Part shown: piece after piece, positions 1-59,883 of the stretch
How positions within the stretch are numbered: position 1 is the stretch's first letter
How the letters are laid out: each line of letters starts with the position of its first letter
From: a virus
Lineage: Duplodnaviria > Caudoviricetes
Length of the DNA stretch: 60,616 nucleotides
IMG/VR virus record: IMGVR_UViG_3300017751_000016
Span: 1-60,616 of that record
Strand: one strand, 5' to 3'
Position numbers and translations under genes: made by a program
The notes under the pieces: model-generated
Told to the model about the DNA's origin: nothing
Databases searched by the model: none
Seen by the model: only the letters and a program-made list of their open reading frames with translations

Positions 1-70
1 AACACTGTCGGTGCTGTTGGGAAGCGCAGATGGACAACACTAGGACGCCGTTCGAATCGGAGCAGTGTTC
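1..70 (+). tRNA. tRNA-like element with an irregular anticodon arm (pseudo-tRNA or processing element)
   Basis: AACACTG (1-7) pairs with CAGTGTT (63-69); T-arm CGCCG-TTCGAAT-CGGAG (46-62, one mismatch); D-stem GTGC/GCGC around a GG-containing loop; no canonical 5-bp/7-nt anticodon arm and no encoded CCA. Confidence 0.5.
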
Positions 71-77
71 TTCTGAT

Positions 78-254
78 GGGGCTATTCATAGATTCGACAG
101 ACAACTGAAAGCATGTGGAGAATCGACTAACGCAGAAGGTCGTTAAACTAGAAGCAAAAATATAATCGCAGCTAATGACGATTACTATGAGGGTCTACGC
201 CTAGCAGCGTAAACTTCATCGGGGTTTGAAGGAGCCTTGTTACCCAAGTCCTTC
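78..254 (+). ncRNA. ssrA: tmRNA coding piece (probably a permuted two-piece tmRNA); tag (A)AANDDYYEGLRLAA at 168-212
   Basis: 5' end GGGGCTATTCATAGATTCGACAG resembles the tmRNA 5' consensus; conserved GCATG at ~111; upstream context ATAATC-GCA before the resume codon; tag ends LAA-stop; pseudoknot 220-254 followed by a T-run; no 3' acceptor strand found downstream. Confidence 0.88.
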
Positions 255-279
255 TTTTTTTAACCAATGGAGAAAAATT

Positions 280-351
280 ATGTGGACTAAGCCAACTTAC
301 GAAAATGTACGACTCGGCTTTGAAATCACCATGTATTTCAAAACTCGTTAA
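280..351 (+). CDS. pqqA: Pyrroloquinoline quinone precursor peptide PqqA (MWTKPTYENVRLGFEITMYFKTR)
   Basis: Hand-translated 23-aa ORF with a GGAG RBS at ~269-272; W-x-K-P...R-x-GFE-x-T-M-Y signature including the ExxxY core; below the ORF track size cutoff. Confidence 0.92.
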   Translation: MWTKPTYENVRLGFEITMYFKTR

Positions 352-360
352 AATGCTAGT

Positions 361-391
361 GGGGTATGGGTTCCACCCTTAAAAACGGACC
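361..391 (+). other. Predicted H-type RNA pseudoknot upstream of the sleB-like gene
   Basis: GGGT(362-365)/ACCC(375-378) plus GGTTC(369-373)/GGACC(387-391); same architecture as the tmRNA pseudoknot at 220-254. Confidence 0.4.
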
Positions 392-410
392 TTAATTAAA
401 GGATACAATC

Positions 411-986
411 ATGTATATATTAGAAGATACGCTTGCTATGTTAGGTGCAGTTTTTGTAGTAACATCAGCAAGTATGTTTGCTTATAATGAAGATGATACG
501 CCTATAGAATTAGAAGTAATAACAACGGTTGAAGAGAATTCTTCATGGTATGATCTTGCACAAAAAAATACCGAGTGTTTAGCAACGAATATTTATTTTG
601 AAGCTCGTGGTGAGTCATACGAAGGCAAGAAGGCAGTAGCTTTTGTTACTCTGAATCGTGTAGAAAGTCCTAATTTTCCTGATACCATATGTGATGTTGT
701 TTATCAAGCTCGACACTCTCGTTGGTGGAAGACAGAAAGAGATCGTCTTGTGCCGATCAAACATCAATGTCAGTTTAGCTGGTACTGTGATGGTAAATCT
801 GATTACATCAGAAACATTCACGAGTACGAAGAGTTATACAAATTAGCGAGTGAGATTATTGTCGGTAAGCATAGCGACAACACAGGCGGCGCTGATTACT
901 ATCACTCAACAAAAGTCAAGCCTGATTGGCGATTAGCATTTACAAGAACGACTAAAATAGATAAACATATATTTTATGCTGAATAA
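411..986 (+). CDS. SleB-like cell wall hydrolase (Hydrolase_2 family)
   Basis: CLATNIYFEARGES, VTLNRV..FPDTICDVVYQ, CQFSWYCDGK, GADYYH, IDKHIFY motifs; hydrophobic N-terminus. Confidence 0.9.
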   Translation: MYILEDTLAMLGAVFVVTSASMFAYNEDDTPIELEVITTVEENSSWYDLAQKNTECLATNIYFEARGESYEGKKAVAFVTLNRVESPNFPDTICDVVYQARHSRWWKTERDRLVPIKHQCQFSWYCDGKSDYIRNIHEYEELYKLASEIIVGKHSDNTGGADYYHSTKVKPDWRLAFTRTTKIDKHIFYAE

Positions 987-1653
987 TAATTTTTTATGTA
1001 ATTGGTGCGAAGGGACTGAATGGAATAATCCTGACAATGTACCAGAAGACAAATGGCCATTGGCTCAATTTGGATTAGTAGACCTGTCTACTATAGAATG
1101 TGCAAGTTGTGGAAGTAAGCCAAGACAGAGATGCTTAAAACAAACACTCGACCAGAATCGAACAACTGAATGGCAACAATACAAAACACTACAACTCAGT
1201 CCTGATTTGTTGCCGATCATCTCTCACTGGTTCAATGAGTTTGAGGTATCTGAATATAACGGTGAAAATAGTATAGATTTAGAAGATGCTAACCGACTTG
1301 ATAACACATATGATCTTATTTCCTGCATACACATATTGGAACATATAAAAAATGATACTGTTGCAATTGAAGAATTAATTCGTATATTAAAGCCGGGCGG
1401 GCAAGTGTATATAATGGTACCACAGCCTGCACTGCCATCGAATGCAATCACTAGAGACTGGGGTTATCCAGATGAAAATGATTACGGGCATTATAGAATT
1501 TACGGAAGAGATTTTAAAGATAAATTGATAAGTATTACTAAAGCTACTGCTAAACTGGATGTGTTTGAAAAAATAGATTCTTTTACATCGAAAAAAGAAT
1601 TAATTTATGTGTTGACTAAAAATGTGTTGACATCGACCTCTGATACTGTATAA
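976..1653 (+). CDS. SAM-dependent methyltransferase with N-terminal CxxC...CxxC
   Basis: YDLISCIHILEHI, ELIRILKPGG, DYGHYRIYGRDF motifs of Methyltransf_11-type enzymes often found in glycan loci. Confidence 0.75.
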   Translation: MLNNNFLCNWCEGTEWNNPDNVPEDKWPLAQFGLVDLSTIECASCGSKPRQRCLKQTLDQNRTTEWQQYKTLQLSPDLLPIISHWFNEFEVSEYNGENSIDLEDANRLDNTYDLISCIHILEHIKNDTVAIEELIRILKPGGQVYIMVPQPALPSNAITRDWGYPDENDYGHYRIYGRDFKDKLISITKATAKLDVFEKIDSFTSKKELIYVLTKNVLTSTSDTV

Positions 1654-1654
1654 T
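1627..1654 (+). promoter_or_regulatory. Sigma70-type promoter for the epimerase-gp33-gp59 genes
   Basis: TTGACA-N16-TATAAT just before ATG 1662. Confidence 0.7.
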
Positions 1655-1661
1655 ATAATAT

Positions 1662-2525
1662 ATGAATGAAGAAAATATAGACGCAAGAATAGTAGTTACA
1701 GGTGGTTGTGGATTCATAGGATCTCACCTAGTGTATCGTCTTGCTGAGATTGGATTTGATGTCACTGTTGTAGATGATATGCGACAAGGAGATTATGTAT
1801 TTGATCTTCCCAATGTCAGATATATCTTTGAAGATGTTGCTTGGTGTGATCTTACTGAACGAATGCCACGACCTCTTGCTATCATACATTTAGCAAACAG
1901 TCCTAGAGTTCGCAGATCACTTGAAGAGCCAAGAGACACTATTGACAATAACATCACCACAACTACGGCTGTGTGTGATTGGGCAAGACACTGGCAGACA
2001 TTCTTGTTCTTTGCGACATCTTCTAGCACACAGTATAAAGAATCGGTTAATCCTTACACATGGAGCAAAGCAGCGTGTGAAGGTATTTTAGATTTGTATG
2101 AAGAACTTTATGATTTAAAGTTTATGAAAATGTTCTTCTACAATGTGTATGGACCAGGAGAAGCAGACTATGGTCCATACAGTACAGTAATAAGAAAGTT
2201 TAAGAAAGACTATTTGGCGGGTGATTCTCTCACTATTTTCGGCAACGGAAGCAAAGAAAGAGACTTCACTCATGTAGATGATGTTGTACAAGGCATACTG
2301 CAACTGTTAGTAGATGAAAGACACCTGAAAGAAGTACACTTCGGTAAAGGTGATCCCAAGACTATAATATCAATTGCTCAAGCATTTAACACTTCAATCG
2401 TTCACAGTTTTGATAAACCAGGTGAAGCGCAGACTACTATCTGTAAAACACCTTACATAGAATGTCCTAATGATGTCCTCAGTTACATAGATAATTGGGT
2501 GAAGGAGAACAAGATTGACAATTAG
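1662..2525 (+). CDS. NAD-dependent nucleotide-sugar epimerase/dehydratase (extended SDR)
   Basis: VTGGCGFIGSHL, YxxxK (YTWSK), FYNVYGPG, RDFTHVDDVV. Confidence 0.9.
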   Translation: MNEENIDARIVVTGGCGFIGSHLVYRLAEIGFDVTVVDDMRQGDYVFDLPNVRYIFEDVAWCDLTERMPRPLAIIHLANSPRVRRSLEEPRDTIDNNITTTTAVCDWARHWQTFLFFATSSSTQYKESVNPYTWSKAACEGILDLYEELYDLKFMKMFFYNVYGPGEADYGPYSTVIRKFKKDYLAGDSLTIFGNGSKERDFTHVDDVVQGILQLLVDERHLKEVHFGKGDPKTIISIAQAFNTSIVHSFDKPGEAQTTICKTPYIECPNDVLSYIDNWVKENKIDN

Positions 2526-2805
2526 AGTAGTAAACGAATTTATGGCAAACTCAGAAAAACTTACAGATGTTTTTATCATCACAAAAAAATTCAATACGGC
2601 CGCTGAATTCTCACAGCACATTGAACGCAAAGCAATTCATACGAAATCGTCCTGTATTGACGTTCTTATTGAATATTGTACAAAAAATGATGTTGAAATC
2701 GAAAGTGCCAATAAGTTAATTAGTACCAGTCTCAAAGAAAAGATACAAGCAGAAGCGCAAGAACTCAATCTTCTTAAGGTAAAATCTAATAAACTACCCT
2801 TTTAA
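2515..2805 (+). CDS. gp33: Late promoter transcription coactivator gp33
   Basis: FSQHIE...IDVLIEYC.KNDVEIE...LKEKIQAEAQELNLLK pattern; position before gp59 and gp32; TTG start with GGAG RBS (ATG alternative at 2542). Confidence 0.85.
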   Translation: MTIRVVNEFMANSEKLTDVFIITKKFNTAAEFSQHIERKAIHTKSSCIDVLIEYCTKNDVEIESANKLISTSLKEKIQAEAQELNLLKVKSNKLPF

Positions 2806-2806
2806 T

Positions 2807-3406
2807 ATGGAACCATTTGAAGTTTTTAGAATATATCTGTCTTTAAAGTTGCATTTTACAACTAAAGAGTATGATATCACGCAAACAAAAGGCGCTGTTA
2901 GAGGCAAGAAGGAAACTTTTTTAAAAAGAAAAGACCTTACCTCTATCCGCAAATTGGCGAGAGACTACACTAAAGAACAAATTATAGACATTCTTGTTGC
3001 CAATTTTTCACAGGGTGATAGATGGGGTGGAATATTTGATTCATCTTGTCTAGAAACTTATAAAAAGTGGTTGACAAACAAGCGCAAAATGTTGTATAAT
3101 TTTAATAATGATCTTGATTTAATTCTTACTAGAATGGAAAAAGAAGAAATCAAATCAGCAATATCAGAAGGCACACATCCTTTAATTTTTAGAATGTATA
3201 TGGGTCGTGAAATAAGTTTGGACAGCATGGTAATGATAGAAAAGCTTAGACCCTTTGTTGAAGAATATTATGATGATTTTGTCTTACAGGATATATGTCT
3301 TTTGATATTAAAGTATAAACCCTTTATCAAATTTGATAAAGATAAAATTAACGCTAAACACATGGAGCAACTAAATTTAGTTTACGGCGATGAGCAAATC
3401 AAATAA
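2807..3406 (+). CDS. gp59: Helicase loader gp59
   Basis: YLSLKLHFT...YD, F.KRKD, VANF, KYKPF motifs; synteny. Confidence 0.88.
   Translation: MEPFEVFRIYLSLKLHFTTKEYDITQTKGAVRGKKETFLKRKDLTSIRKLARDYTKEQIIDILVANFSQGDRWGGIFDSSCLETYKKWLTNKRKMLYNFNNDLDLILTRMEKEEIKSAISEGTHPLIFRMYMGREISLDSMVMIEKLRPFVEEYYDDFVLQDICLLILKYKPFIKFDKDKINAKHMEQLNLVYGDEQIK
3071..3100 (+). promoter_or_regulatory. Sigma70-type promoter inside gp59, facing gp32
   Basis: TTGACA-N18-TATAAT. Confidence 0.55.
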
Positions 3407-3542
3407 GTTTAGACCGCAAGAAAAACGCATCAAGCGTGTAGGGAAAAAGCCTGGCAAGAATATTGACAGGGAATTAAAGAATATAAATAAGATTGATACA
3501 TCAAAGCTGGACGATGTGTTTGAAAATTTATATACGAAGTAA
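3390..3542 (+). CDS. Small basic hypothetical protein (50 aa) between gp59 and gp32
   Basis: Hand-translated MSKSNKFRPQEKRIKRVGKKPGKNIDRELKN...LYTK; fills the gap on the coding strand. Confidence 0.6.
   Translation: MSKSNKFRPQEKRIKRVGKKPGKNIDRELKNINKIDTSKLDDVFENLYTK
3482..3489 (+). promoter_or_regulatory. T4-type late promoter upstream of gp32
   Basis: TATAAATA. Confidence 0.55.
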
Positions 3543-3584
3543 TACAACGCAATATAACGCAATACAATCTATACAACGCATACT
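3541..3584 (+). promoter_or_regulatory. Repetitive unstructured leader, putative gp32 autogenous translational operator
   Basis: About four copies of AATACAACGC-like units directly before the GGAG RBS of gp32. Confidence 0.55.
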
Positions 3585-3596
3585 AGGAGAAAATAT

Positions 3597-4514
3597 ATGT
3601 CGTTTAATTCACTATCCGATCTACGCAAGGCCCGTGGCAACTTCGATTCACTTATGAAAGAAGTTGAAAAACTTGATACACCTCAGCAAAGCAATCGAGG
3701 CGATGATCGAGAATGGAAACCTACGGTAGACCAAGCAGGTAATGGCTATGCTGTTATTCGCTTTCTTCCTGCACCACAAGGCGAAGATATGCCTTGGTCA
3801 CAACTTTGGAATCACGGATTTCAAGGACCATCTGGTAAGTGGTACATCGAAAACTCACTTACTACACTCAAGCAAACTGACCCTGTATCAGAACTCAATT
3901 CAGAGCTTTGGAACAGCGGTGTAGAAGCTAACAAAGAAGTTGCTCGTAAGCAGAAGCGCCGACTATCATATTACGCTAACATTCTTGTAGTAGAGGATTC
4001 TGGCAATCCTGCTAACAACGGCAAAGTGTTCTTGTACAAGTTTGGCAAGAAAATCTTTGACAAAATCAAAGACGCTATGCAGCCCGAGTTTCAAGACGAA
4101 GATCCAATGAATCCTTTTGACTTCTGGGATGGTGCTAACTTCAAGCTGAAGATTCGTCAAGTAGAAGGCTATCGCAACTACGACAAGTCTGAGTTCTCGG
4201 CAGTTAGTCCTGTGTCTGACTCTGATGAAGAGATTGAAGCAATCTGGAACAAGCAGCATTCACTTGCTGAAATCATTGCTCCTTCTAACTTCAAGTCGTA
4301 TGATGAACTGAAGAAGAAGCTTGACTTTGTTCTTGGATCAGCATCACGAGTAGGCACAGCAGAAAGCATTTCAGCTACTACTGGCGACTTGGCAGACGAT
4401 GCGTTTCTAAAGGATGTTACGACAGCGGTTGAAAGCAGACAACAAACTGCGATTGATACAGATGACACCGATGACACCATGTCATACTTTGCTAAACTAG
4501 CACAAGATGACTAG
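3597..4514 (+). CDS. gp32: Single-stranded DNA-binding protein gp32
   Basis: GNGYAVIRFLPAP, HGFQGP.GKWYIENSLTT, FDFWDGANFKLKIR.VEGYRNYDKSEF; acidic tail ending YFAKLAQDD. Confidence 0.97.
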   Translation: MSFNSLSDLRKARGNFDSLMKEVEKLDTPQQSNRGDDREWKPTVDQAGNGYAVIRFLPAPQGEDMPWSQLWNHGFQGPSGKWYIENSLTTLKQTDPVSELNSELWNSGVEANKEVARKQKRRLSYYANILVVEDSGNPANNGKVFLYKFGKKIFDKIKDAMQPEFQDEDPMNPFDFWDGANFKLKIRQVEGYRNYDKSEFSAVSPVSDSDEEIEAIWNKQHSLAEIIAPSNFKSYDELKKKLDFVLGSASRVGTAESISATTGDLADDAFLKDVTTAVESRQQTAIDTDDTDDTMSYFAKLAQDD

Positions 4515-4531
4515 TCAATAGTCTGTAATAG

Positions 4532-4555
4532 AAAAAGGGGCTTTGCCCCTTTTTT
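4532..4555. terminator. Bidirectional intrinsic terminator between convergent gp32 and gp29-like genes
   Basis: AAAAGGGGC-TTT-GCCCCTTTTTT. Confidence 0.85.
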
Positions 4556-4556
4556 G

Positions 4557-6587
4557 TTATCTAGTTCCATTCGATTTGAATTGTGCCAACGAACTGCTGT
4601 TTTCTCTACTTGAAGAAGGATTTACGATTATTGGTTGTTGACTTCCACCACCTCCACCACTCGTATTGTTATTTGTAGTATTGTAAATATTTGTAATATT
4701 ATTTGTAGTAGCATTTCCAGCAGCATCAGTCATATTTGCAACAGCATCCGCAGTTGGTGTAACCGAAACTTGCGCTTCCTGTGAATTTGGCATAATTTCA
4801 GCTGAGGTTTGATTTACAGGAGGCTTTTCTGTGACTCCAAATCTAGATTCATCAGCTTGATTGAAAGCCGAACTTTGTACACTTGGAGCAACAGTAGTAG
4901 AATCTCCACCGCCGTCTAGCTGGCTAAGTCTTTCTAATACTCGGTTAGTATCTTTTTCTGATAGATCATCGTCAGCAAGTATAGCATTTAGTTGAGCCGT
5001 GTCAGAAGTTTCTTTAAGTATATCAGGATTAATTTTACTTTTTCCTACCCAGTTCTTGTTGTACAATCCACTGTCTTCTGCTGCTTCTAGTGCGGCTTCA
5101 CCTGATGTAGTCGTGGCTGCATCACCTATCATTTCTCCAGCTTTATTTCCCATAAAATAACCTGCTACACCACCAATAGCACCACCTACTACTCCGCCGA
5201 TAACTGTGCCAACTCCAGGAACAATTGATCCCAAAGCAGCGCCCATAGTAGCACCGGTAGATCCCATTGCTAAAGAACCAGCAAGCCCACCAGTCGCTGC
5301 CGTCACTGCTTCTACTTTACCCGAAGTTTCATCTTGCTCCGTGAACATCTGACCAGTTTCTTCATTTATTGCACCAGATTCAACCAGCTGATCGGCTGCG
5401 TTGTAATCTTGGTATCCCTCATACACAGAACCTGCTACTGCTAATGGTATTGCTGCCTTACTTGCAATTCTTCCTACACCACCTAGAACTTTACTGGTAG
5501 TACTGGCGCTACGAGCAACATCGTCAGCTACGTTTGTTGCTTGTATAGCAGGAAAGCCTCTAGATGCGTTTATTTTGTTTATTCTAGAGTTCTTCGCTGC
5601 GCCCTGTAATGGCTTGCCGTTTATATCTAGAAGATCGTCAGGCGAAATGGCAGGTGTCTTTCCTGTAATTCTGCTTCTCATTCTCTGAAAAAGATTTGCT
5701 TTTTTTGGACCTCCTGTCATTCCAGGAAGAAAAGATGGTAATCCAAAACCACCACCACTATCTTCTGACATCTTTTTCAATTCTGCTAAAATTTGCTCAA
5801 GAAGTTCTACTTTTTTATTATCTAGGGATTCTCTATCAATACCAGAAACAAACGTGTTGCCCCCTTCTGCATTCTTTTCAATTGCTGATGAAGATGGAGT
5901 ATCGGCTTCTGTTGGTGTAACTCCAAGCTGTTCTACCGAGTTAGCCATTCCACCGATCTGTGCCTTATTCTCCTGTTCAGTTTCTACATCTTCTTTTTGC
6001 CTCTTTATGACAGTATTCGCAGAAGGTTTTAAGCCAAACATTTTTTCCATAGTAAATGCTTGTTTAAAGGAATCTTTGAATCCAAGACCCTCGTCTGTTT
6101 TCATCAATTTTCGCCATGCGGTGCCACCTACACTTCCTCGACCTACATCACTGGCTAAAGTCTTTTGAGCTTTATCTAAACCAAATTTTTCTACTAGTTC
6201 ATCACCTTGATCGCCGGCAGCACTTCTTATTCTTTCTACTTGTTTTATTAAGTCTTTGATGGCAGCTACGCTTGCTTTGCCTGTTTGTTGCTGCGCCGCT
6301 GCCATTTTTTTCATGAGAGACGCCAATTCTTTCTTTGTTTCATCGCCCTGGTTTTCAATTATGTTTTGTATATCTATTGTATTTTTGCCTAAGCTTTTGG
6401 CGATATCAGAAGAGACCTGAGAAATTTTATTTGTTTTTATTCCTGCTGACCTGCCCACATTCATTGCCGATCTAATATTAGTACTAAGTGCCTCTGCACC
6501 ATCACTAGTAAAGCGACCAGTTGTCGTGTCTCTTACTGACCCGCCGTTAAAACTTGGGTCTAGTACATTTTTAGATACTCTAAGCAT
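4557..6587 (-). CDS. Baseplate hub / tail length determinator (gp29-like tape measure)
   Basis: Helical N-half, Gly-zipper GAALGSIVPGVGTVIGGVVGGAIGG, Asn/Thr-rich C-terminus; directly downstream of gp26-gp51. Confidence 0.7.
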   Translation of the reverse strand: MLRVSKNVLDPSFNGGSVRDTTTGRFTSDGAEALSTNIRSAMNVGRSAGIKTNKISQVSSDIAKSLGKNTIDIQNIIENQGDETKKELASLMKKMAAAQQQTGKASVAAIKDLIKQVERIRSAAGDQGDELVEKFGLDKAQKTLASDVGRGSVGGTAWRKLMKTDEGLGFKDSFKQAFTMEKMFGLKPSANTVIKRQKEDVETEQENKAQIGGMANSVEQLGVTPTEADTPSSSAIEKNAEGGNTFVSGIDRESLDNKKVELLEQILAELKKMSEDSGGGFGLPSFLPGMTGGPKKANLFQRMRSRITGKTPAISPDDLLDINGKPLQGAAKNSRINKINASRGFPAIQATNVADDVARSASTTSKVLGGVGRIASKAAIPLAVAGSVYEGYQDYNAADQLVESGAINEETGQMFTEQDETSGKVEAVTAATGGLAGSLAMGSTGATMGAALGSIVPGVGTVIGGVVGGAIGGVAGYFMGNKAGEMIGDAATTTSGEAALEAAEDSGLYNKNWVGKSKINPDILKETSDTAQLNAILADDDLSEKDTNRVLERLSQLDGGGDSTTVAPSVQSSAFNQADESRFGVTEKPPVNQTSAEIMPNSQEAQVSVTPTADAVANMTDAAGNATTNNITNIYNTTNNNTSGGGGGSQQPIIVNPSSSRENSSSLAQFKSNGTR

Positions 6588-26557: not shown

Positions 26558-29500
26558 ATGGCTCTCAATTTAAATTCTTCCCCCTATTATGACGATTTTG
26601 ACGGTAACAAAAACTATTCTAGGATTTTGTTTAAGCCAGGAGTTGCGGTGCAAGCGAGAGAGCTTACTCAACTTCAGACTTTGTTGTCCGATCAATTATC
26701 TCAACTATCCAGCTTTACACTAAAAGATGGTGCAATAATCAGTGGGTGTGAGGAGAGAGTCTCATCTATTAGATATATTAAGATTAAAGACACTGATTTA
26801 GGTGGCACTGTAGTCAACAATAGTGACCTTTCAAATTATGTTGGCGCCGAAGTAATCGGTGGTACTACTGGAATAAAGGCACAGATAATTGCAGTCAGAC
26901 AAGGGGCCGAAGAAACTCCAGCTACCGCAAATGTAAAAACTCTATATCTCAACTACAACGACAGAGCAGGAACAGCCAGAAAAGTTTTTGCTATCGGCGA
27001 AACTCTTACTGTAGTTTCTCTCAATAATACGATCAGCGGCGATACTTTTGTCACATATGATTCTGGTGCAGAACCTACTGGCTCAAGATTGAGATATGAA
27101 GGATCAGCACCCAAAATAGAACTGAGTCCTGGTATAATTTATGCTCGTGGGTCTTTTATCAGAACTACCTCGCTCGCAGCTTTCATCGATCCTTTCGTTA
27201 TCGCTTCGGATAAAAATATTGGTTTCTATATTTCAGAAGCGGTAGTCGGATCATCGAATACAGGCTACAGCGATCTTTTAGATCCTGCTAGGGGTTCTTT
27301 TAACCACAATGCACCTGGAGCAGATCGTCTCCAGTTGGTTGCATCTCTTAGATCATACGATTATCAAACTGCTGCGCTGCCAGAAAATTTCTATCAGTAC
27401 GCAACTTGGCGCAACGGCGGAATGATAAGAAGTAAAATCAAGACAAATCCGTTAGCTGGCGTAGGCGATGCTATAGCTAAATCTGCTTTTGATGCAAATG
27501 GCAGCTATACTATAACTGGATTGCAAACTGTTATTCACGAACATCTTGCCCTCGATGGTAACGGAGGCCGCTTTAGTGCTGCACAAGGTGGCAGTGCCGA
27601 TAAGTTTGTATTTGCAATTACACCTGGTAAAGCAAATGTTGGCGGGTATCCAATTGAAAATAAAAATAAAGATTGGAAAATAACTATAGATAAACCTACC
27701 GACACCAAAATTGAAACCAGTATAGCACAATCAACTGCTTACGGAAACTATACATTAATTGATGAGACTTCTGGTGCGTGGGATGTTGACGGTGGAGAAA
27801 CTGTATCCCTATATGATACTGCACAGAACTCAGTGACTTCTGCAACTTTTTCTTCTACTTCTATCACTGGAAATCAAATAGGATCGGCAAAAATTAGATA
27901 TATTTCTCTCGATTCTGGTGATGCTGGAACTGCCGCAGCGCAATATAGATTATACATGTACGATATTAAAATGTCGAGTGGCACATTTAAAGACGTTGAA
28001 AGCATAGCGTATACTAATGATACTGCGAATGCAGTTGCTGATACTGTATTAGTAAGCGGCGAAGCTGTAATTCAAGAAGGCAACTATAATAGGCTAGTAT
28101 GGGAATTACCTTACGCAAGTCTAAAAACATTAAAAGCAAACAGTAGCGCATATAATTTTGATTTTAAATTTATTGACGAATTTGATGTCGAAGTAAACGG
28201 CAGCACTGGTGTAGTCGCATTATCTCCATCAGATCCTAGTAGTCAATCATTTTTCTTTGCAACTGGAACGCTTTCAGATTCTGTTATAACAAGCAACATT
28301 CATCTAGTTGCTGTTGACTCGTTTACTATTGGCTCAAAAACATATGCGGCAGGTGAATATGTAGATTTAACAGATGCTAGTGTGACGGTAACTTGTGCTG
28401 GAACAAGCTCAGTGTCAATAACATTTTCATCTCCTCCTACTGGTGGCAATGCTGATCTTAAAGCGTATGTTAATATGCAACAAAACAGCAACAAGAATCC
28501 TATTAGTAAAACATACACAAAAGACAAGATAGTTAAGATTGATACACAAGATGCTGGCGCACAGTCATTGGCTAGCAACTTATATTGCTTGGGTGTTTCT
28601 GATCTAATTAAAATTAAATCAATTACTGCAACTGATAATGCAGATTATGTTACCAATAGAGTCAATGTTACAAATGAATTCATAGTTGATAATGGACAAA
28701 GAGATAGTTACTATGGTCTTGCTAAATTAAAACAAAAAGCTACTAGTGCGTATGACTTGGCAACAAAAAGATATATTCTAGTAACATTAGATTATATGAT
28801 TTCTGCCGACGGTTCTACTGGACCAACATTTGCATGTGTAGATTCCTATTCTGCTGCAATTGCTGGCGGAGACATGACGTTACAAGAAATTCCTTTGTAT
28901 TATCCATCTTCAGGTAGAATAATTGATTTAAGAAATTGCATAGACTTTAGACCTTATGTAATTGATACCGCTGAATTGATAGACAAGGCAGCATTCGATG
29001 CTGCGGATGCAGCTGGTAAAACAGTACTATTGAATGCGGTAGCTGCAAATCCTAGTACAAATGAAGTGATCAATAGACCAACTAATGGATTAACAAATCC
29101 AGTACCAAGTGCAACTTTTAATACAAATCTAGAATACTATTTGGCACAAGCATTTAAGGTAGTAGTAACAGCAGAGGGCGAATTTAAAGTATTGACCTCA
29201 GATTCTGCTGAATTTCCAAAAATTCCACCAGTGCCGGATAATGCACTGACGATTTCTGAAGGTATATTTGCTCCGTATCCTTGTTTGTCGCCAAAGGCTG
29301 CTAATTATTATAAAAGAGCAGACTTAAAGGCTTACATCGAACAGGTAAGAACTAAGCGTTATACGATGAAAGATATTGGTGGACTAGAAAAAAGAATTGC
29401 CAATCTTGAATACTATACTGCTTTAAGTTTATTAGAAAAAGAATCCAAGTCATTAGAAATCCTTGATGCATCTGGTGTAGATAGATTTAAAAATGGATTA

Positions 29501-32500
29501 ATGATAGACGCATTCAATACATATGGTGTCATGGCAGTTGGTCATGATGACAATAAATGTTCTTTGGATCTAAAGAGACAGCAGTTAAGAGCCGCATTTG
29601 ATTCTAGTATCATTGCATTTAAACCAATTGCTACAAGTACAACAGTGGGACAAACTGGCGACATGTTCCATGTTCCATATGTTGAAGCCGTATATACAAA
29701 ACAACTGCAAGCTAGTAAAACAAAAAATCTAATCAGTGAATTGTTATTTGCTGATCCAGAGCCCTTGCCGGTTGTTCCTGATCCAATACCGGATCCAGCA
29801 CCTGCGCCGGTCATTCCTCAGCCACCTGTCACGCCTGTAACACCTCCGGTACCACCGAAAGCTGACGAACCTTATTATAACTTGATTCGTTCTTCTACTA
29901 CGATCAACGAAGGTCAGTCGGTTACTATATCGTTAGAGGTGTTAAATCTACCAAATCCACTTGGCACTACAGTAGGTTATTCAGTATCTGGTGTGGACTC
30001 AGCAGATATAAGTGGAGCATCTCTTACTGGTAGTTTCACGTTAGATGCTTCTGGAGACGCATCAGTAACTTTTAATACTGTCGCAGATGCTGATGCAGTG
30101 GATGAAACACTTACATTAACGCTAACAGGGTTGGCTGGAACTACTAAAGGAACTCTAAGTACTAGTGTTACAATATCTGATACTACGGTTATTATACCGC
30201 CGCCGCCACCTGTACTTGGACCATATGCTGGTTCGCTGAGTCTTTCTCCATCTCAAGATGCTTGGTTTGATGATAGCTACGCTGAACCTGCCTATCAGAA
30301 CAAAGAAGGTTCGTGGGATAACTTAGAAATAAAAGGCGACTGGAAAGAAACTTGGGGATCTTGGGAGTTAATATCAGAAGATATAGTCAATGCGACATCA
30401 ACTATAACTGAAGGCGAAATAGGAATTCCACCCAAGGGTTACGGTGGCAATTCGAGACCCACTTCAGTTGATATTGTAACTAAAGAAGAAGCAAATGGAT
30501 ACTGGGAAACAGAAGTAAAGACATATACTGGTCGCAGACAACTTTACGATATAACTACAACCATTGCTGGCAAAAATACGCAAACATGGGAAAGAACTGG
30601 CTCTCGTATATTCTACGGAACTATTCCAGACGAAGTTACTGAATCTACTGGCGACTCAGTTATCAATACTGAAGTTGCTGCATGGGTTCGACCTATTAGT
30701 ATAAGTGGTACTGTTGATGGTCTGATGCCAAATGCAGCTCATGCGATTGCTATGGGCGGCATAAGTAAGGGCAGCGTAACTTCTAATTCAAACGGTAGAG
30801 CTACTTTCTCTATCAGCGTAAATCAAGGCGAATTCAAATGTGGAAACATTACGGTTGAAGTTACTGATTCTAATGTAGCATCAGGAATTGATTCTTATGC
30901 GTCAGCAATATTTAGTGCGAATGGAAGTAAAAGAACTTTACAAACTACTTATGTTACTACCAGATGGCCAGAACCACCAGTAGGCGCAATTCCTCTTCAA
31001 GAAACAAAAACTGAAATACTTCCAGTTGGCGAAGATGGAAGAACACTGACGAAAAAAGGTGATATTATCATCACCACTGTACAGGAAGAAGGCGTTCCAA
31101 ATTGGATACCAGTAGACGATGTATTTGTAACTAGTTCTTGTGCCCTTGGTGTTGGTGACGGCACAATTGGAAATTCAATAAGCACCTACCAGAGATATGA
31201 TGGAACGACATACAATGTAGAAGAGCCGAGTGCTGCATGTACTCCTGCCGCACCAACAGAAGTGCTTACTTTAACTGCAATTGATACGAGTATTACTACT
31301 CTTACGCCAACCACTATTACTACAAAAGTAGTAGAAGAAGTTGATACAACTACTGGTACAGTTGCTCTAGTCCAAGCAGTTGATGATGTTATTGTAACTG
31401 AGGTTTCTCTTTTTGATACTGCTACAAATACTAACAGCGGAGGCGATGCATCTGGAGTAGTCACCGTGACACTATCGAATGATGCAATTTTGGTAGCCGA
31501 CGGACTTGACGAATCAGACTTTGTTGCCGGAGTAACTACTACTGAAGGTAGATATGCTGTTGCAACCGAAAACTTAATTCGTAGTGGTGGAGCTACTGTT
31601 GATTTAATCACAACTCCATTCTCCTCTACGATTAATGATGCTACAGTAAGTCCTGCTAACAATACTATAGTCGCAACGGCAGCTGCTGCATTTGATCATG
31701 CACCTATCTTTAAAATTCCAACATTCCAGCAAATTTCTGATAGCATTTGTATATTTGATCCATTGGCACAAACTTTCTATGTTACTGGAATGCCTGGAGG
31801 AATGTTCGTTCCTTCGATTGACGTATTCTTTAAGACTATATCAAGCGAAGCAAACAACAATGGTGTCACTCTTGAAATCAGAGAAGTTGTTAATGGAAAT
31901 CCTACTGCAAAAGTTGTACCTAACGGCAGAGTGTTCCTAAGAAGATCAGATGTTGACGCATCTGGAATAAATGCTGACGGCAGTGTTGATTTCAGATCAA
32001 CCAAATTTAGATTCAATCATCTTGTACATCTAAACAATGATACAGAGTATTGTATTGTTCTCAGACCAGAAGCCAATGATCCAGGATACGAAGCTTGGGT
32101 GGCAGAACTGGGCGAATTGCAAATTAATTCAACAAATAGAATTACAAAGCAAGCGCATGGCGGTGTATTGTTTACTTCTGCTAATGACAGAAGTTGGTCT
32201 GCACATCAATCAGAAGATTTGATGTTTATGGTCAACAGATGTAACTTTAAAACCAACACAGATTATGTACTTAACACAGCTAACAAAAATATTGATTGGA
32301 TTAAAGTAGACAATAATACATGGGACGATACAGTAGTTGATGGCAAAGTAAAAGCTCCTAAGTTTGATTTAGATTCTTTTGTCCACGGTTTCAAACTCAC
32401 ATTAGCAACTGCTGGTGACTATGCAACTGATGGCACATATGCTCTAACATTCACCGGCGGCGGCGGCTCAAACGCAGCGGGAACATACGTTGTATCAGGT

Positions 32501-33763
32501 GGACTTGTGACCACCGTCACACTAACTAATCCAGGAAATGGATACACTTCTGCTCCCACAATTACATTACCGCTTGGTACTCCTACGACACAAGCAACAG
32601 TCAGTGTTGAATTGAATAGGGGCCAAGTAACATATTTCGATTCTTTTTACAAAACGTGGGAAATACTAGTTACTGATGGAAAATTCACATCGGCTGATCT
32701 TATATCTGACGGTATTAATTTTGTCAATATTGATAGTATTAACGACAGAGTTGTTGACGCACATGTATTGAAAGCTTCGGTGATTAACCCAAATGAAAAA
32801 TGTTTTATAACTAAAAGTATCGCTCTAACGAAAACTGCGGCGGCTTCTGCTAACACTACACATACTTCGTTGGAGACAAATGCAACAGTTGAATTGGAAG
32901 AAGAGAAGACAATTTACAGCTATTCCAATGAGCAAAGAAATTATGCAGGAAATAAAACTGCTCTTGTTAAATTTACATTGAATACTCCTTTAAACAATCT
33001 TAGCCCGATAGTTGATCTTGCTGGAATGTCTATGGGTATGTACAAAAATAAAATAAACAATCCAAGTCCAGTGTCTGAAAGTGTCAGATTTGGTGGCAAC
33101 GCAGATGCCAAATATATTTCTCGTCAAGTAGTTCTTGCAGACAAACAAGATGCTGAAGATATGAGAGTATTCCTAGACAACAAAATACCCGCAGGTGCTG
33201 ACGTAGAAGTTTACGGTAAGTTTAGAAATGCAGAAGACGATGCTGAATTTGTAAATGATATTTTCTGGCACAAACTAGAAATTGAAACTTCTCCTAAAGT
33301 TAGAAGTGAAAATTTTGCACAGTATGTTTATAAGATTCCTGCAAAAGGTTCGAACTCATACGGAACAGATAGTGGTACTGGCGTATATGAGTATGAGGTT
33401 TATAGAATCAGCAACATTGCAGTCAGTGCTGGTGGTACTGGATATACTCAAGGCAGCGCACCAACAGTAACATTGACTCACTCGGCAGGAACTGGATACG
33501 GTGCAACAGCGGCAGCAATTGTTGAAAGTGGAGTTGTAACTGGTATTAAAATTACAAATCCTGGTCGTGGATACGATACTGGTACTGTAACTGCTACCCT
33601 CTCTGGCGGAGATGGAACTGGAGCGACTGCTGGTACTGTAACTGTTTCGCCAATTACATTCAAGGGATATAAAGATTTTGCAATAAAGATTGTTCACCTC
33701 AGTGACAATACTGCAAAAATACCTAAGTCTTCTGGACTTAGAGCATACGCATTACAGGTTTAA
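26558..33763 (+). CDS. Large virion structural protein, VrlC/DUF4815-like (2401 aa)
   Basis: NLN.SPYYDDF, ILFKPG.AVQARELTQLQ, APGADRL, RYTMKDIG.LEKRI.NLEYYT.LSLLE, DRFKNG, DPLAQTF motifs. Confidence 0.85.
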   Translation: MALNLNSSPYYDDFDGNKNYSRILFKPGVAVQARELTQLQTLLSDQLSQLSSFTLKDGAIISGCEERVSSIRYIKIKDTDLGGTVVNNSDLSNYVGAEVIGGTTGIKAQIIAVRQGAEETPATANVKTLYLNYNDRAGTARKVFAIGETLTVVSLNNTISGDTFVTYDSGAEPTGSRLRYEGSAPKIELSPGIIYARGSFIRTTSLAAFIDPFVIASDKNIGFYISEAVVGSSNTGYSDLLDPARGSFNHNAPGADRLQLVASLRSYDYQTAALPENFYQYATWRNGGMIRSKIKTNPLAGVGDAIAKSAFDANGSYTITGLQTVIHEHLALDGNGGRFSAAQGGSADKFVFAITPGKANVGGYPIENKNKDWKITIDKPTDTKIETSIAQSTAYGNYTLIDETSGAWDVDGGETVSLYDTAQNSVTSATFSSTSITGNQIGSAKIRYISLDSGDAGTAAAQYRLYMYDIKMSSGTFKDVESIAYTNDTANAVADTVLVSGEAVIQEGNYNRLVWELPYASLKTLKANSSAYNFDFKFIDEFDVEVNGSTGVVALSPSDPSSQSFFFATGTLSDSVITSNIHLVAVDSFTIGSKTYAAGEYVDLTDASVTVTCAGTSSVSITFSSPPTGGNADLKAYVNMQQNSNKNPISKTYTKDKIVKIDTQDAGAQSLASNLYCLGVSDLIKIKSITATDNADYVTNRVNVTNEFIVDNGQRDSYYGLAKLKQKATSAYDLATKRYILVTLDYMISADGSTGPTFACVDSYSAAIAGGDMTLQEIPLYYPSSGRIIDLRNCIDFRPYVIDTAELIDKAAFDAADAAGKTVLLNAVAANPSTNEVINRPTNGLTNPVPSATFNTNLEYYLAQAFKVVVTAEGEFKVLTSDSAEFPKIPPVPDNALTISEGIFAPYPCLSPKAANYYKRADLKAYIEQVRTKRYTMKDIGGLEKRIANLEYYTALSLLEKESKSLEILDASGVDRFKNGLMIDAFNTYGVMAVGHDDNKCSLDLKRQQLRAAFDSSIIAFKPIATSTTVGQTGDMFHVPYVEAVYTKQLQASKTKNLISELLFADPEPLPVVPDPIPDPAPAPVIPQPPVTPVTPPVPPKADEPYYNLIRSSTTINEGQSVTISLEVLNLPNPLGTTVGYSVSGVDSADISGASLTGSFTLDASGDASVTFNTVADADAVDETLTLTLTGLAGTTKGTLSTSVTISDTTVIIPPPPPVLGPYAGSLSLSPSQDAWFDDSYAEPAYQNKEGSWDNLEIKGDWKETWGSWELISEDIVNATSTITEGEIGIPPKGYGGNSRPTSVDIVTKEEANGYWETEVKTYTGRRQLYDITTTIAGKNTQTWERTGSRIFYGTIPDEVTESTGDSVINTEVAAWVRPISISGTVDGLMPNAAHAIAMGGISKGSVTSNSNGRATFSISVNQGEFKCGNITVEVTDSNVASGIDSYASAIFSANGSKRTLQTTYVTTRWPEPPVGAIPLQETKTEILPVGEDGRTLTKKGDIIITTVQEEGVPNWIPVDDVFVTSSCALGVGDGTIGNSISTYQRYDGTTYNVEEPSAACTPAAPTEVLTLTAIDTSITTLTPTTITTKVVEEVDTTTGTVALVQAVDDVIVTEVSLFDTATNTNSGGDASGVVTVTLSNDAILVADGLDESDFVAGVTTTEGRYAVATENLIRSGGATVDLITTPFSSTINDATVSPANNTIVATAAAAFDHAPIFKIPTFQQISDSICIFDPLAQTFYVTGMPGGMFVPSIDVFFKTISSEANNNGVTLEIREVVNGNPTAKVVPNGRVFLRRSDVDASGINADGSVDFRSTKFRFNHLVHLNNDTEYCIVLRPEANDPGYEAWVAELGELQINSTNRITKQAHGGVLFTSANDRSWSAHQSEDLMFMVNRCNFKTNTDYVLNTANKNIDWIKVDNNTWDDTVVDGKVKAPKFDLDSFVHGFKLTLATAGDYATDGTYALTFTGGGGSNAAGTYVVSGGLVTTVTLTNPGNGYTSAPTITLPLGTPTTQATVSVELNRGQVTYFDSFYKTWEILVTDGKFTSADLISDGINFVNIDSINDRVVDAHVLKASVINPNEKCFITKSIALTKTAAASANTTHTSLETNATVELEEEKTIYSYSNEQRNYAGNKTALVKFTLNTPLNNLSPIVDLAGMSMGMYKNKINNPSPVSESVRFGGNADAKYISRQVVLADKQDAEDMRVFLDNKIPAGADVEVYGKFRNAEDDAEFVNDIFWHKLEIETSPKVRSENFAQYVYKIPAKGSNSYGTDSGTGVYEYEVYRISNIAVSAGGTGYTQGSAPTVTLTHSAGTGYGATAAAIVESGVVTGIKITNPGRGYDTGTVTATLSGGDGTGATAGTVTVSPITFKGYKDFAIKIVHLSDNTAKIPKSSGLRAYALQV

Positions 33764-49677: not shown

Positions 49678-50116
49678 TCCATTTGATAGTTTAGACGATG
49701 CGTTTGACACAAAAGACAAGACTAAAGCACTACAGTCAAACCTAAAACAAGTCAGGAAAGATAATAATCTTCCTGTGCCTCCTGCTGATGCTGAAAAGGA
49801 TCTTGAGGAAGATTTTCAAGAAGCTCGTGATATACTGAGGCGAACAGCCGAGTATAGCGAAGAAGCAATCAAAGGCATGTTGCACATTGCGAAGAACAGC
49901 GATCAACCAAGAGCATATGAAGTCGCAGGTCAATTGATCAAGGCACTTCAAGACAATGCTGGTGCTATGATGGATGTCCAAGACAAAGCAAAAAAAGTTA
50001 AAGGTGAAGAAGTCAAGTCTAAGAATAATGCTGTAACAAATAATAATTTATTTGTAGGAAGTACTAAAGACTTGCTCAGAGCCTTAAAGGACGAGCAGGT
50101 CATAGATCATGAGTGA
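49664..50116 (+). CDS. gp16: Terminase small subunit gp16
   Basis: PRAYEVAGQLIK, TNNNLFVGST.DL. Confidence 0.93.
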   Translation: MKLNNPFDSLDDAFDTKDKTKALQSNLKQVRKDNNLPVPPADAEKDLEEDFQEARDILRRTAEYSEEAIKGMLHIAKNSDQPRAYEVAGQLIKALQDNAGAMMDVQDKAKKVKGEEVKSKNNAVTNNNLFVGSTKDLLRALKDEQVIDHE

Positions 50117-51764
50117 AGAAACTTCCTATCACGGTAATCCTAATCTAAAATCTATTGGCTACAAACACGACTTTACTCAAGAGCAAATCAAAGAGTATTT
50201 GAAGTGCCAAGACGATCCTATCTATTTTATTGAAAATTATTGTATGATTGTAACTCTTGATACTGGCTTACAGTTGTTCAAGTTATATGATTGTCAAAAG
50301 ACAAAAGTAGATATTATCATGAATAATCGTAAGGTTATTCTAATGGAAGGTAGACAACAAGGTAAAACTGTTACTGCCGCTGCATGTATTCTACATTACA
50401 CTATCTTCAATGCTGATAAAACTGTTGCTATCATGGCAAACAAAACAGCATCAGCAAGAGAAGTGCTTCTGCGTTATCAAACTATGTACGAAAACTTGCC
50501 TATATGGATGCAACAAGGGGTAAAGACATGGAACAAAGGTGATGTTGACTTAGAAAATAACTGTCGTGTATTCACAGCAGCGACAACAACATCTGGTATT
50601 CGTGGTAAATCTGTAAACTGGCTGTATATTGACGAAGCAGCAATCATTCCAAATAATGTTGCTGATGAATTCTTTGCGTCAGTGTATCCTACAATTTCTG
50701 CGGGTGAAACAACAAAGATTTTGCTGACATCTACTCCACTTGGATACAATCACTTCTGGAAATTTTGGAATGAAGCAGAAAAGGGCGCAAATGGATTTAC
50801 AAATCACTTCATTCATTACACACAAATACCTGGCAGAGATGAGAAATGGGCTGAAGAGCAACTCAAGCTTCTAGGCGAACTAAAGTTTACACAAGAAGTA
50901 TTGTGTGAGTTTCTTGGATCGTCAAACACACTTATCAATGCAAGAACTATTGGAGCTTTGAGTTCAAAAGAAGTATTGTATGAAAATTCTGAAGGAAACG
51001 CAGTTGACATATACGAAGATCCAATAAAGAATCATTATTATTGTATTACAGTAGACACTGCCAGAGGTATTGGTGGTGACTATTCAGCGTTTGTTGTTGT
51101 TGATATTACTGAGATGCCTTATAAAGTGGTAGCTAAGTATCGTAATAACAAAATTGCACCAATGCTGTACCCAAATGTTATAGCAAAAGTAGGAGAAGAT
51201 TATAATAACGCCTTTGTTTTAATTGAGAACAATGACATTGGCGGTCAAGTAGTAGAAATATTACATGAAGAAATAGAATATGACAATATTTTTAGTACAG
51301 TGACAGAAAAATCTAGACAGTATGTATCGCCTGGTTTTGGTAAATCTACTAGACTAGGTGTCAATACATCGAAACAAGTAAAGAGACAAGGTTGTTTCAA
51401 CTTTAAGTCTCTCATGGAAGAAAAAAAGCTTTTAGTATTCGATGCCGATATCATTAGTGAGATATCAACATTTGTTGAAAAGGGCAATACTTATCAAGCA
51501 GACGAAGGATACAATGATGACTGCGTGATGTGCATGGTTCTCTTTGGTTGGCTATCTACTATGCCATTCTTTAAAGAATTGGTAGATGTAAATACCAGAG
51601 AGGGACTATACAATCAACAAATGAAAAGTATTACACAAAATTTAACACCATTTATAGTCAAAAAAGGTAATGAAGGCCCTGACCCATGGGTAGCTGGCGG
51701 TGATTATTGGTTAGTTGATGAAGAATACAGTAAAAGACTTTCTGAGTCAAAGTTCAAATACTAA
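50109..51764 (+). CDS. gp17: Terminase large subunit gp17
   Basis: YHGNPNLK, DPIYFIENY, RQQGKT (Walker A), IDEAA (Walker B), STP.GYNHF, D.ARG.GGDYSAF, DDCVM. Confidence 0.98.
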   Translation: MSEETSYHGNPNLKSIGYKHDFTQEQIKEYLKCQDDPIYFIENYCMIVTLDTGLQLFKLYDCQKTKVDIIMNNRKVILMEGRQQGKTVTAAACILHYTIFNADKTVAIMANKTASAREVLLRYQTMYENLPIWMQQGVKTWNKGDVDLENNCRVFTAATTTSGIRGKSVNWLYIDEAAIIPNNVADEFFASVYPTISAGETTKILLTSTPLGYNHFWKFWNEAEKGANGFTNHFIHYTQIPGRDEKWAEEQLKLLGELKFTQEVLCEFLGSSNTLINARTIGALSSKEVLYENSEGNAVDIYEDPIKNHYYCITVDTARGIGGDYSAFVVVDITEMPYKVVAKYRNNKIAPMLYPNVIAKVGEDYNNAFVLIENNDIGGQVVEILHEEIEYDNIFSTVTEKSRQYVSPGFGKSTRLGVNTSKQVKRQGCFNFKSLMEEKKLLVFDADIISEISTFVEKGNTYQADEGYNDDCVMCMVLFGWLSTMPFFKELVDVNTREGLYNQQMKSITQNLTPFIVKKGNEGPDPWVAGGDYWLVDEEYSKRLSESKFKY

Positions 51765-58620: not shown

Positions 58621-59883
58621 ATGTATCTTTCAGAGCAAATTGAAAGCAAGTGGGCACCAGTCCTCGAACATGCTGATCTGACACCTATCGCAGATCCGTA
58701 TAAGAAGGCTGTAACTGCTGTTATTCTAGAAAACCAAGAAAAAGCCCTTCGTGAAGAGAAGGGTATCATGGAAGCAACTCATACTAACGCCACTGGCGCT
58801 AGTGTTGACAACTATGACCCAATCCTAATCAGCCTTGTTAGACGAGCTTTGCCTAACTTGATGGCTTATGACGTTGCTGGTGTTCAGCCAATGACTGGTC
58901 CTACTGGTTTGATCTTCGCTATGAAGTCACACTACACTAGCCAGACTGGTACTGAAGCACTCTTCAACGAAGCTGACACTGACTTCTCTGGTGCTGGTAC
59001 TCACGCAGGTTCTAACCCTGTTGACGGTTCTTACACTACTGGTAACGGTGTATCTACTTCTACTGCTGAAGGCTTCGGCGATTCAACTACTTTGAACGAG
59101 ATGGCTTTCTCAATCGAGAAGACTACTGTTACAGCTAAGTCTCGTGCATTGAAAGCTGAGTACACTGTAGAACTCGCACAAGACCTCAAAGCAATCCACG
59201 GTCTTGACGCTGAGTCAGAGCTTTCTAACATTCTTTCACAAGAAATTCTTGCTGAAATTAACCGTGAAGTTATCCGTACTATCTACAAGGTAGCTAAGCC
59301 GGGTTCTGCTTCAACTGCTACTCCTGGTACTTTCGACCTTGACGTTGACTCAAACGGTCGTTGGTCAGTAGAGCGTTTCAAAGGTCTCTTGTTCAACATC
59401 GAGCGTGATGCTAACGTGATTGCACAAGATACTCGTAGAGGCAAAGGTAACTTCATCATCTGTTCATCAGACGTTGCAAGTGCCCTCGCAATGGCTGGCG
59501 TACTTGATTACACGCCTGCTCTTTCTACTAACTTGAATGTTGACGATACTGGTAACACTTTCGCTGGTGTTCTTAACGGTCGTTACAAAGTTTACATCGA
59601 TCCATACAGTGCTAACACTGGTGCTGCATCGCAGTTCTACGTTGCTGGCTACAAAGGTACTTCACCTTATGACGCTGGTCTCTTCTACTGCCCATACGTT
59701 CCATTACAAATGGTTCGTGCGATTGACCCTAACACCTTCCAGCCTAAAATCGGCTTTAAGACTCGTTACGGCATGGTTGCTAACCCATACGTTACACAAG
59801 CTGATGGTACTACTGACGCAGATACATTTACTGCTGATCGTAACCAGTACTACCGTGCTGTTAAGGTTTCAAACCTTATGTAA
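58621..59883 (+). CDS. gp23: Major capsid protein gp23
   Basis: KW.PVL.H, DPILISLVRRA.PNL.AYD..GVQPMTGPTGLIFAM, AEYT.ELAQDLKAIHGLDAE.EL.NIL, YCPYVPLQMVRA, FQPKIGFKTRYG. Confidence 0.99.
   Translation: MYLSEQIESKWAPVLEHADLTPIADPYKKAVTAVILENQEKALREEKGIMEATHTNATGASVDNYDPILISLVRRALPNLMAYDVAGVQPMTGPTGLIFAMKSHYTSQTGTEALFNEADTDFSGAGTHAGSNPVDGSYTTGNGVSTSTAEGFGDSTTLNEMAFSIEKTTVTAKSRALKAEYTVELAQDLKAIHGLDAESELSNILSQEILAEINREVIRTIYKVAKPGSASTATPGTFDLDVDSNGRWSVERFKGLLFNIERDANVIAQDTRRGKGNFIICSSDVASALAMAGVLDYTPALSTNLNVDDTGNTFAGVLNGRYKVYIDPYSANTGAASQFYVAGYKGTSPYDAGLFYCPYVPLQMVRAIDPNTFQPKIGFKTRYGMVANPYVTQADGTTDADTFTADRNQYYRAVKVSNLM

Follow-up and report, generated by a model that had tools for sequence, protein, structure and literature searches.

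Does a marine phage carry a gene for PqqA, the precursor peptide of the cofactor PQQ, and what would such a gene do where it stands alone? The window, by which we mean the whole stretch of DNA that was analysed, is an entire IMG/VR record, linear, 60,616 bases long and with a CheckV completeness of 38%. A sequence-only reading had proposed that a 23-residue ORF near its left end, with a good ribosome-binding site and invisible to the ORF track, encodes a phage-borne PqqA much like that of gammaproteobacteria, and that no pqqB-E genes are present in the window.

Identity and phage location of the 23-codon ORF

The ORF and its ribosome-binding site were located as follows:

280-351, + strand: pqqA, 23 codons plus stop, ATG at 280, TAA at 349-351, product MWTKPTYENVRLGFEITMYFKTR
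269-272, + strand: Shine-Dalgarno motif GGAG, 7 nt upstream of the pqqA ATG

The frame is intact, and its absence from the ORF track is explained by the default listing threshold of 60 aa, under which 23 codons fall. In profile searches the peptide belonged to the PqqA family, with 39.5 bits against Pfam PF08042 (cut-off 21.1, E 5.3e-10) and 44.2 bits against the NCBIfam equivalog TIGR02107 (cut-off 20, E 1.1e-11), and a six-frame search of the full record returned a single PqqA match (E 3.4e-10). Its 23 residues fit the range of about 20-30 residues of PqqA, and Glu15 and Tyr19 form the E-x-x-x-Y motif; the cross-linking role of these two residues is taken from papers cited within the accessible text of PMC7678222 and PMC9851590. 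The closest bacterial peptides, with 20-21 of 23 residues identical, were indeed gammaproteobacterial and came from Pseudohongiella-like and Pseudomonadales MAGs carrying pqqA-pqqB(CDE). All these claims of the sequence-only reading were thus borne out.

PqqA is usually encoded in an operon with pqqB-E, and the window gene stands alone. The operon is no strict criterion for the family, since Methylophilaceae have orphan copies (PMC4109929, accessible part). In the window, the PqqD, TENA/PqqC, Radical_SAM, PQQ and PQQ_2 families gave no match each, and the best E-value of a tblastn with the PqqB-E of a bacterial contig was 0.98, in line with the absence of pqqB-E claimed before; no PQQ dehydrogenase was found. 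For this phage the result covers about 38% of the genome. The same tblastn matched none of 264 viral loci and, as a positive control, 22 of 27 bacterial loci with the PqqA subtype of the window. In addition, PqqD and PQQ_2 were each matched in none of five pqqA-bearing phage sequences, namely the complete genomes of Melnitz and Venkman, two jumbo viral contigs (340 kb, 91% complete, and 356 kb, 96% complete) and one 56-kb contig.

The following genes characterise the carrier and served for comparison with its relatives:

411-986, + strand: cell-wall hydrolase (Pfam Hydrolase_2, 91 bits), directly 3' of pqqA, used as synteny anchor
3597-4514: gp32-type ssDNA-binding protein (PHROGs)
50109-51764: large terminase (PHROGs)
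54094-55656: portal (PHROGs)
58621-59883: major head protein (PHROGs)

Baseplate and tail proteins were also identified with PHROGs, and the structural region holds an ORF of 2401 residues (26558-33763). The portal is 54.5% identical to that of Methylophilales phage Melnitz, 54.1% to that of Pelagibacter phage Mosig and about 53% to those of cyanomyophages. Together with the phage backbone, these identities place the carrier as a distant member of the marine T4-like myophages; it is a lytic-type phage of this kind. A blastn of window positions 1-1000 against INPHARED gave no match.

With the hydrolase as anchor, 40 related viral loci were found. The order tmRNA-pqqA-hydrolase lies internally in four other viral contigs (L126/L172, L127/L204, L128/L216 and L129/L254), which have viral genes on both sides of pqqA. 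Downstream are the hydrolase and gp32; the 3-6 kb upstream of the tmRNA hold phage-type genes for a PhoH-like protein, a PD-(D/E)XK nuclease, a glycine-zipper protein, a carbamoyltransferase, a glycosyltransferase and tRNAs, which is a typical accessory region of marine myophages. These contigs answer the concern, raised in the sequence-only reading itself, that the contig end might be a host chimera. Such an assembly chimera, with the first 400 bases being host DNA joined to a phage contig, is extremely improbable: pqqA does start 279 nt from the contig end beside a tmRNA, a classic integration site, and the window itself has phage genes only downstream of it, but four independent viral contigs share the order, the neighbouring tmRNA has the two-piece form described for Melnitz-like phages (PMC9004378, accessible part), the closest bacterial pqqA is just 61/72 nt identical and the stretch is present in several seawater DNA runs. 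Over the 16 bacterial copies compared, 56-61 of 72 nt were identical to the window although 20-21 of 23 residues were, and the gene is therefore not freshly assembled host DNA. Part of the stretch was contained in 20 of the 24 listed runs, which are seawater, marine, aquatic or viral metagenomes. We conclude that ORF 280-351 is almost certainly a real, phage-borne pqqA.

A pqqA cassette in the tail of a two-piece tmRNA gene

The sequence around pqqA was assigned to the following elements:

1-77, + strand: intervening segment of a permuted (two-piece) tmRNA, 5'-truncated match to RF04321 (21.7 bits, cut-off 47)
78-212, + strand: tmRNA coding piece, 5' GGGGCUAUUCAUAGAUUCGAC, tag frame AANDDYYEGLRLAA at 168-209, stop at 210-212
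213-261, + strand: post-tag hairpin GAAGGAG...CUCCUUC followed by U7, terminator-like; may be part of a pseudoknot
352-410, + strand: element GCUAGUGGGGUAUGGGUUCCACCC..., which directly follows the tmRNA tag stop in the pqqA-less relatives L125 and L130

A two-piece tmRNA gene, whose tag of 14 residues is unusual, is represented in window positions 1-262 by its 3' part. Both ARAGORN and the Rfam search at gathering level were silent on the window because the acceptor piece is lost beyond the contig end, and the truncated gene was seen at E-value level. Complete tmRNA genes in L126, L127, L128 and L130 scored 77.5-107.1 bits on RF04321 and were called 'tmRNA*' by ARAGORN, and the two strands of the acceptor stem vary together in the alignment of the relatives. 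The ARAGORN tag was the same as that of the window in L126 and L128 and ended in ...LTA in L129. Beyond the window, the variant tag occurred only in the same four contigs that carry pqqA in this position.

Two look-alike elements flank pqqA, at 213-261 and 352-390. The first matches positions 249-304 of the beta_tmRNA model with 18.8 bits, which is below the cut-off, and folds with -11.8 kcal/mol, not better than shuffled sequences. The energies of folds of 213-270, 345-410 and 262-360 were likewise no better than those of shuffles. The post-tag hairpin was not listed in a terminator scan, and a promoter scan was negative for the interval from the tmRNA tag to pqqA. Among the five pqqA-bearing contigs (the window and the four relatives) the element at 352-410 has two variable columns in 60.

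The nearest relatives by backbone, L125 and L130 (about 90% nt identity over 1643-4763), both lack pqqA, which is therefore dispensable. Their tmRNA tag, ANDEAFALAA, is canonical-looking, and they also lack the methyltransferase gene at 976-1653. Among the five pqqA-bearing contigs, segment 124-410 is 97-100% identical, as against about 74% for the backbones and 53% for the tmRNA intervening segment. This difference suggests that a small tmRNA-tail cassette of about 290 nt with pqqA moves between related phages by recent recombinational spread. Both tmRNA variants, with and without pqqA, were present in one seawater DNA run. The pqqA gene itself is nucleotide-identical in the five contigs (none of 72 columns variable), which fits recent spread as well as constraint.

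A tentative and rather unlikely extension is that the module of about 290 nt is part of the phage tmRNA transcription unit. The module would then comprise the variant tag, the post-tag pseudoknot or hairpin, the Shine-Dalgarno motif and pqqA, would have been spliced into the 3' tail of the two-piece tmRNA between two look-alike pseudoknot elements, and would move as a unit between diverged phages. The tiny pqqA mRNA would borrow the strong early promoter of the tmRNA as well as its processing. If true, tmRNA and mRNA would be combined in one gene, and a phage would have a novel means of expressing so small a metabolic gene. The hairpin and U7 between the tag and pqqA could stop transcription ahead of pqqA. 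We also looked at metatranscriptomes, using the assembled contigs of three seawater RNA runs and one DNA run. At low depth, the assembled RNA contigs lay over parts of 1-200 and of 301-3000, and none covered 201-300 or pqqA; those at 77-123 continue into the pqqA-less tmRNA variant. In assembled contigs such a gap speaks neither for nor against transcription of pqqA.

Adjacency to a tRNA or tmRNA was also considered as a general rule for viral pqqA and was rejected: such a gene was found within 300 nt in 7 of 228 viral pqqA loci, six of which belong to the group of the window.

Recurrence, selection and host lineage of viral pqqA

Lone pqqA genes recur in many unrelated phage genomes. When PqqA was searched by tblastn against 50,697 GenBank phage records (INPHARED), 12 records were returned, ten of which are Methylophilales phages or an uncultured podovirus (four Melnitz strains, Venkman, MEP401, MEP402, MEP301, P19250A and one uncultured podovirus). 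Every cultured Methylophilales phage returned by the search has the gene. In the phage records that were opened it is intact, has a Shine-Dalgarno motif and is either unannotated or lies under an opposite-strand 'hypothetical protein'. All ten phage peptides tested passed TIGR02107 with 34-48 bits. The other two records are named 'Acinetobacter phage MD-2021a'; one of them (L003, CAKLQF020000010.1) holds fur, ppk, a 5'-nucleotidase gene and pqqBCDE and looks bacterial-chromosomal rather than phage.

Scans of IMG/VR with degenerate patterns found at least 120 contigs of subtype A (...ATEMRFGFEVTMYV...) and 107 of subtype B (...TYENVRLGFEITMYF...), to which the window peptide belongs. Lone pqqA thus occurs in at least 227 IMG/VR contigs and in 44 sequence contexts. 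The stored loci contain 228 instances, with some contigs represented twice, and among them are 187 different local contexts and 167 different ORF sequences. A length of 23 codons was found in 209 of the 226 instances having a start codon (228 found in all), and a Shine-Dalgarno-like motif precedes 226 of the 227 ORFs with enough upstream sequence. In two loci (L189, 1333-1479, - strand; L241, 3256-3402, - strand) a PqqA core (...QWTKPEYENIRFGFEVTMYIFNR) has no ATG ahead of the Trp and is joined in frame to upstream sequence rich in Lys and Arg; translation may begin at another start, or the peptide may be an N-terminally extended variant.

Clustering of the viral pqqA flanks gave 44 groups, of which 14 have a single member. 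The largest, with 48 loci (for instance L017, L024, L041 and L084), contains both subtypes (A, 15 loci; B, 33 loci), as if among related phages the subtype followed the host. In three unrelated phage groups pqqA lies directly 3' of the major head gene (L024, 5137-6271; L222, 1554-2668; L171, 2903-4264). With these three head proteins as queries, a head gene on the same strand and at most 600 nt upstream of pqqA was found in 36 of 228 loci, and 22 further loci have it farther upstream. Placement after the head gene would suit a product required in quantity, but not all viral pqqA genes have it, and that of the window does not.

The sequence-only reading had also proposed to look at conservation, dN/dS and the ExxxY motif in related phages. 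Because the search patterns fixed most codons, only the dN/dS of codons free of the pattern counts; by the Nei-Gojobori method it was 0.24 for 53 subtype-B sequences and 0.17 for 96 subtype-A sequences, with synonymous differences near saturation (pS 0.61-0.68). At this level of codon comparison, viral pqqA in general is shown to be under purifying selection. When the Glu and Tyr codons were left free in the scan, at least 120 contigs were found among the matches listed, and all 213 stored loci that fit the relaxed pattern, 10 new contigs included, have both residues. The reactive residues are therefore kept without being demanded by the pattern, and they are present in every viral copy seen.

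For the origin of the subtype, we scanned 185,579 species genomes for subtype B and obtained 27 contigs. In 22 of them pqqB, and mostly pqqC-E too, lies beside pqqA, and these are labelled Pseudohongiella, Pseudohongiellaceae, Pseudomonadales or unnamed gammaproteobacterial MAGs. In another, an 829-kb gammaproteobacterial contig (L269), pqqA is at the edge of the locus and pqqB could lie outside it. The remaining four (L273, L275, L281 and L287) have a lone subtype-B pqqA without pqqB and bear labels ill-suited to a PQQ maker, namely Neomarinimicrobiota (L273, 335 kb), Methanobacteriota and Verrucomicrobiales (4.6-7.4 kb). All four may be viral DNA, and the three short ones (4.6-7.4 kb) are probably viral contigs that were mis-binned.

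Five bacterial genomes with subtype-B PqqA (G001-G005, 2.1-3.8 Mb) have one pqqA each. Their matches to the PQQ alcohol dehydrogenase family number 32-52 per genome, which is an unusually large quinoprotein set; 20 of these matches in all exceed the 480-bit cut-off, and in some cases two matches are parts of a single gene. A membrane PQQ dehydrogenase scored above the cut-off in two of the five. From these comparisons we predict that the likely donor or host of the window pqqA belongs to the Pseudohongiella-like gammaproteobacteria and has a single pqqA beside numerous PQQ dehydrogenases. For cultured phages the principle of matching peptide to host holds: the peptide of Venkman agrees at every residue with an NCBI entry 'PqqA [Methylophilaceae bacterium]'.

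Proposed role and relation to known systems

Each molecule of PQQ uses up one molecule of PqqA, whereas the other parts of the pathway are enzymes that work repeatedly. If a phage silences host transcription or outcompetes it, pqqA is therefore the one gene that it has to replace to sustain PQQ synthesis. We consider it fairly likely that, as the sequence-only reading proposed, phage PqqA is a substrate for host PQQ synthesis, feeding dehydrogenases. The peptide would be made during infection and converted into PQQ by the host PqqD, PqqE, PqqB and PqqC, and this PQQ would keep the periplasmic PQQ-dependent dehydrogenases of the host loaded, their electrons feeding respiration. The logic would be that of other phage genes replacing a fast-consumed host component. 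Against this reading, PQQ is a stable cofactor, which may lessen the need for new synthesis within one infection, L125 and L130 do without the gene, and a terminator-like hairpin stands ahead of it. By analogy, a precedent for amplifying the substrate gene alone may be seen in Methylophilaceae, which have 3-12 copies of pqqA and a single pqqBCDEFG (PMC4109929) and whose orphan copies are highly expressed when PQQ is made (PMC9851590; both papers in their accessible parts).

It is unlikely that pqqA is a neutral or nearly neutral passenger, which arrived with the mobile tmRNA-tail cassette and is unused by the phage. The absence of the gene from the closest backbone relatives (L125 and L130), the near-identity of the cassette at 124-410 on diverged backbones, which points to recent transfer, the terminator-like hairpin ahead of pqqA and the lack of an assembled RNA contig over the gene in the three RNA runs would all suit a passenger. 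However, ORF, start, stop and Shine-Dalgarno motif are intact in all five contigs, viral pqqA as a class is under purifying selection across 44 contexts, and a functionless gene of 72 nt would decay fast in a streamlined phage genome. If the peptide is used, PQQ made from it might serve another end, for instance as an antioxidant or as a secreted or shared cofactor. We regard this as quite unlikely; nothing specific speaks for it, although the evidence for the peptide as a true substrate applies here in full, and the dozens of PQQ-dependent dehydrogenase homologues of the candidate hosts are the simplest sink. Moreover, the cultured cases are phages of methylotrophs, in which methanol oxidation needs PQQ (PMC7678222, accessible text).

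Very unlikely, finally, is the second option of the sequence-only reading, a decoy or inhibitor that titrates PqqD or PqqE and so lowers host PQQ synthesis. An excess of leader peptide could in principle compete for PqqD, but the phage peptide is nearly identical to bacterial PqqA encoded beside pqqB, and Glu and Tyr are kept also where the scan left them free, and it should therefore be processed and not block. Methylophilaceae themselves multiply pqqA, according to the accessible part of PMC4109929.

If the supply of substrate is indeed what the phage gene provides, the availability of PqqA would limit PQQ synthesis in infected cells, and PQQ-linked periplasmic oxidation would matter for phage production in several abundant marine groups. 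With 72 nt, pqqA ranks among the smallest metabolic helper genes available to a phage, and it escapes standard gene callers.

The supply idea had been put forward before. For methylotroph viruses of Lake Baikal, PqqA was suggested to be an auxiliary metabolic gene (population VP_266; Coutinho et al. 2020, Microbiome, PMC7678222), and pqqA is listed among virus-encoded genes and AMGs in reservoir sediments (2026, PMC13188868). As far as the accessible texts go, our literature searches for phage pqqA found viral pqqA reported only in these two papers (the first also as a bioRxiv preprint). No paper found names pqqA in cultured OM43/LD28 phages, and the Melnitz, MEP and Baikal supplements may list small ORFs; the Melnitz paper mentions PQQ only as a medium component, at 1 nM.

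As in the window, the PqqA precursor gene of VP_266 lies on a viral contig, and it was proposed to support PQQ-dependent methanol oxidation (PMC7678222). According to the accessible text of that paper, the Baikal virus also has a methanol dehydrogenase and a freshwater Methylophilaceae host, whereas the window has no dehydrogenase, is from a marine T4-like myophage, encodes peptide subtype B and has its pqqA linked to a tmRNA. Melnitz, Venkman, MEP301, MEP401/402 and P19250A resemble the window in having a lone pqqA of 23-24 codons with a Shine-Dalgarno motif and no other pqq gene, and Melnitz shares the broad T4-like group and the two-piece tmRNA. The peptides of these cultured Methylophilales phages are, unlike that of the window, of the Methylophilaceae subtype (subtype A), and the Melnitz pqqA precedes a tRNA-Leu and does not lie at the tmRNA.

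The bacterial PqqA of Pseudohongiella-like and other Pseudomonadales (L286, L289, L291, L292, L294 and others) has the same length and motif as the window peptide. The bacterial gene is followed by pqqB(CDE) in 22 of 27 loci, whereas the window gene is alone and diverged at the DNA level. The orphan pqqA copies of Methylophilaceae (PMC4109929 and PMC9851590, accessible parts) are, like the viral ones, multiplied without the enzymes, but they are chromosomal. The candidate hosts of the window's subtype differ from Methylophilaceae in their single pqqA (5 of 5 genomes, against the 3-12 copies given in PMC4109929). The two-piece tmRNA of Melnitz-like phages and pelagimyophages is, like that of the window, a permuted tmRNA in a marine T4-like phage; in the accessible text of PMC9004378 a glutamine riboswitch is placed in the tmRNA 3' domain, whereas no riboswitch was matched in the window and pqqA occupies the 3' tail.

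Lone viral pqqA has thus been known since 2020, and the window is a further example and not a new kind. It adds to the record a marine T4-like carrier, a second peptide subtype, which in place of methylotrophs indicates Pseudohongiella-like gammaproteobacteria with their many PQQ enzymes, and the placement in a phage tmRNA tail; this tmRNA-tail pqqA cassette is the one feature that we have not seen described.
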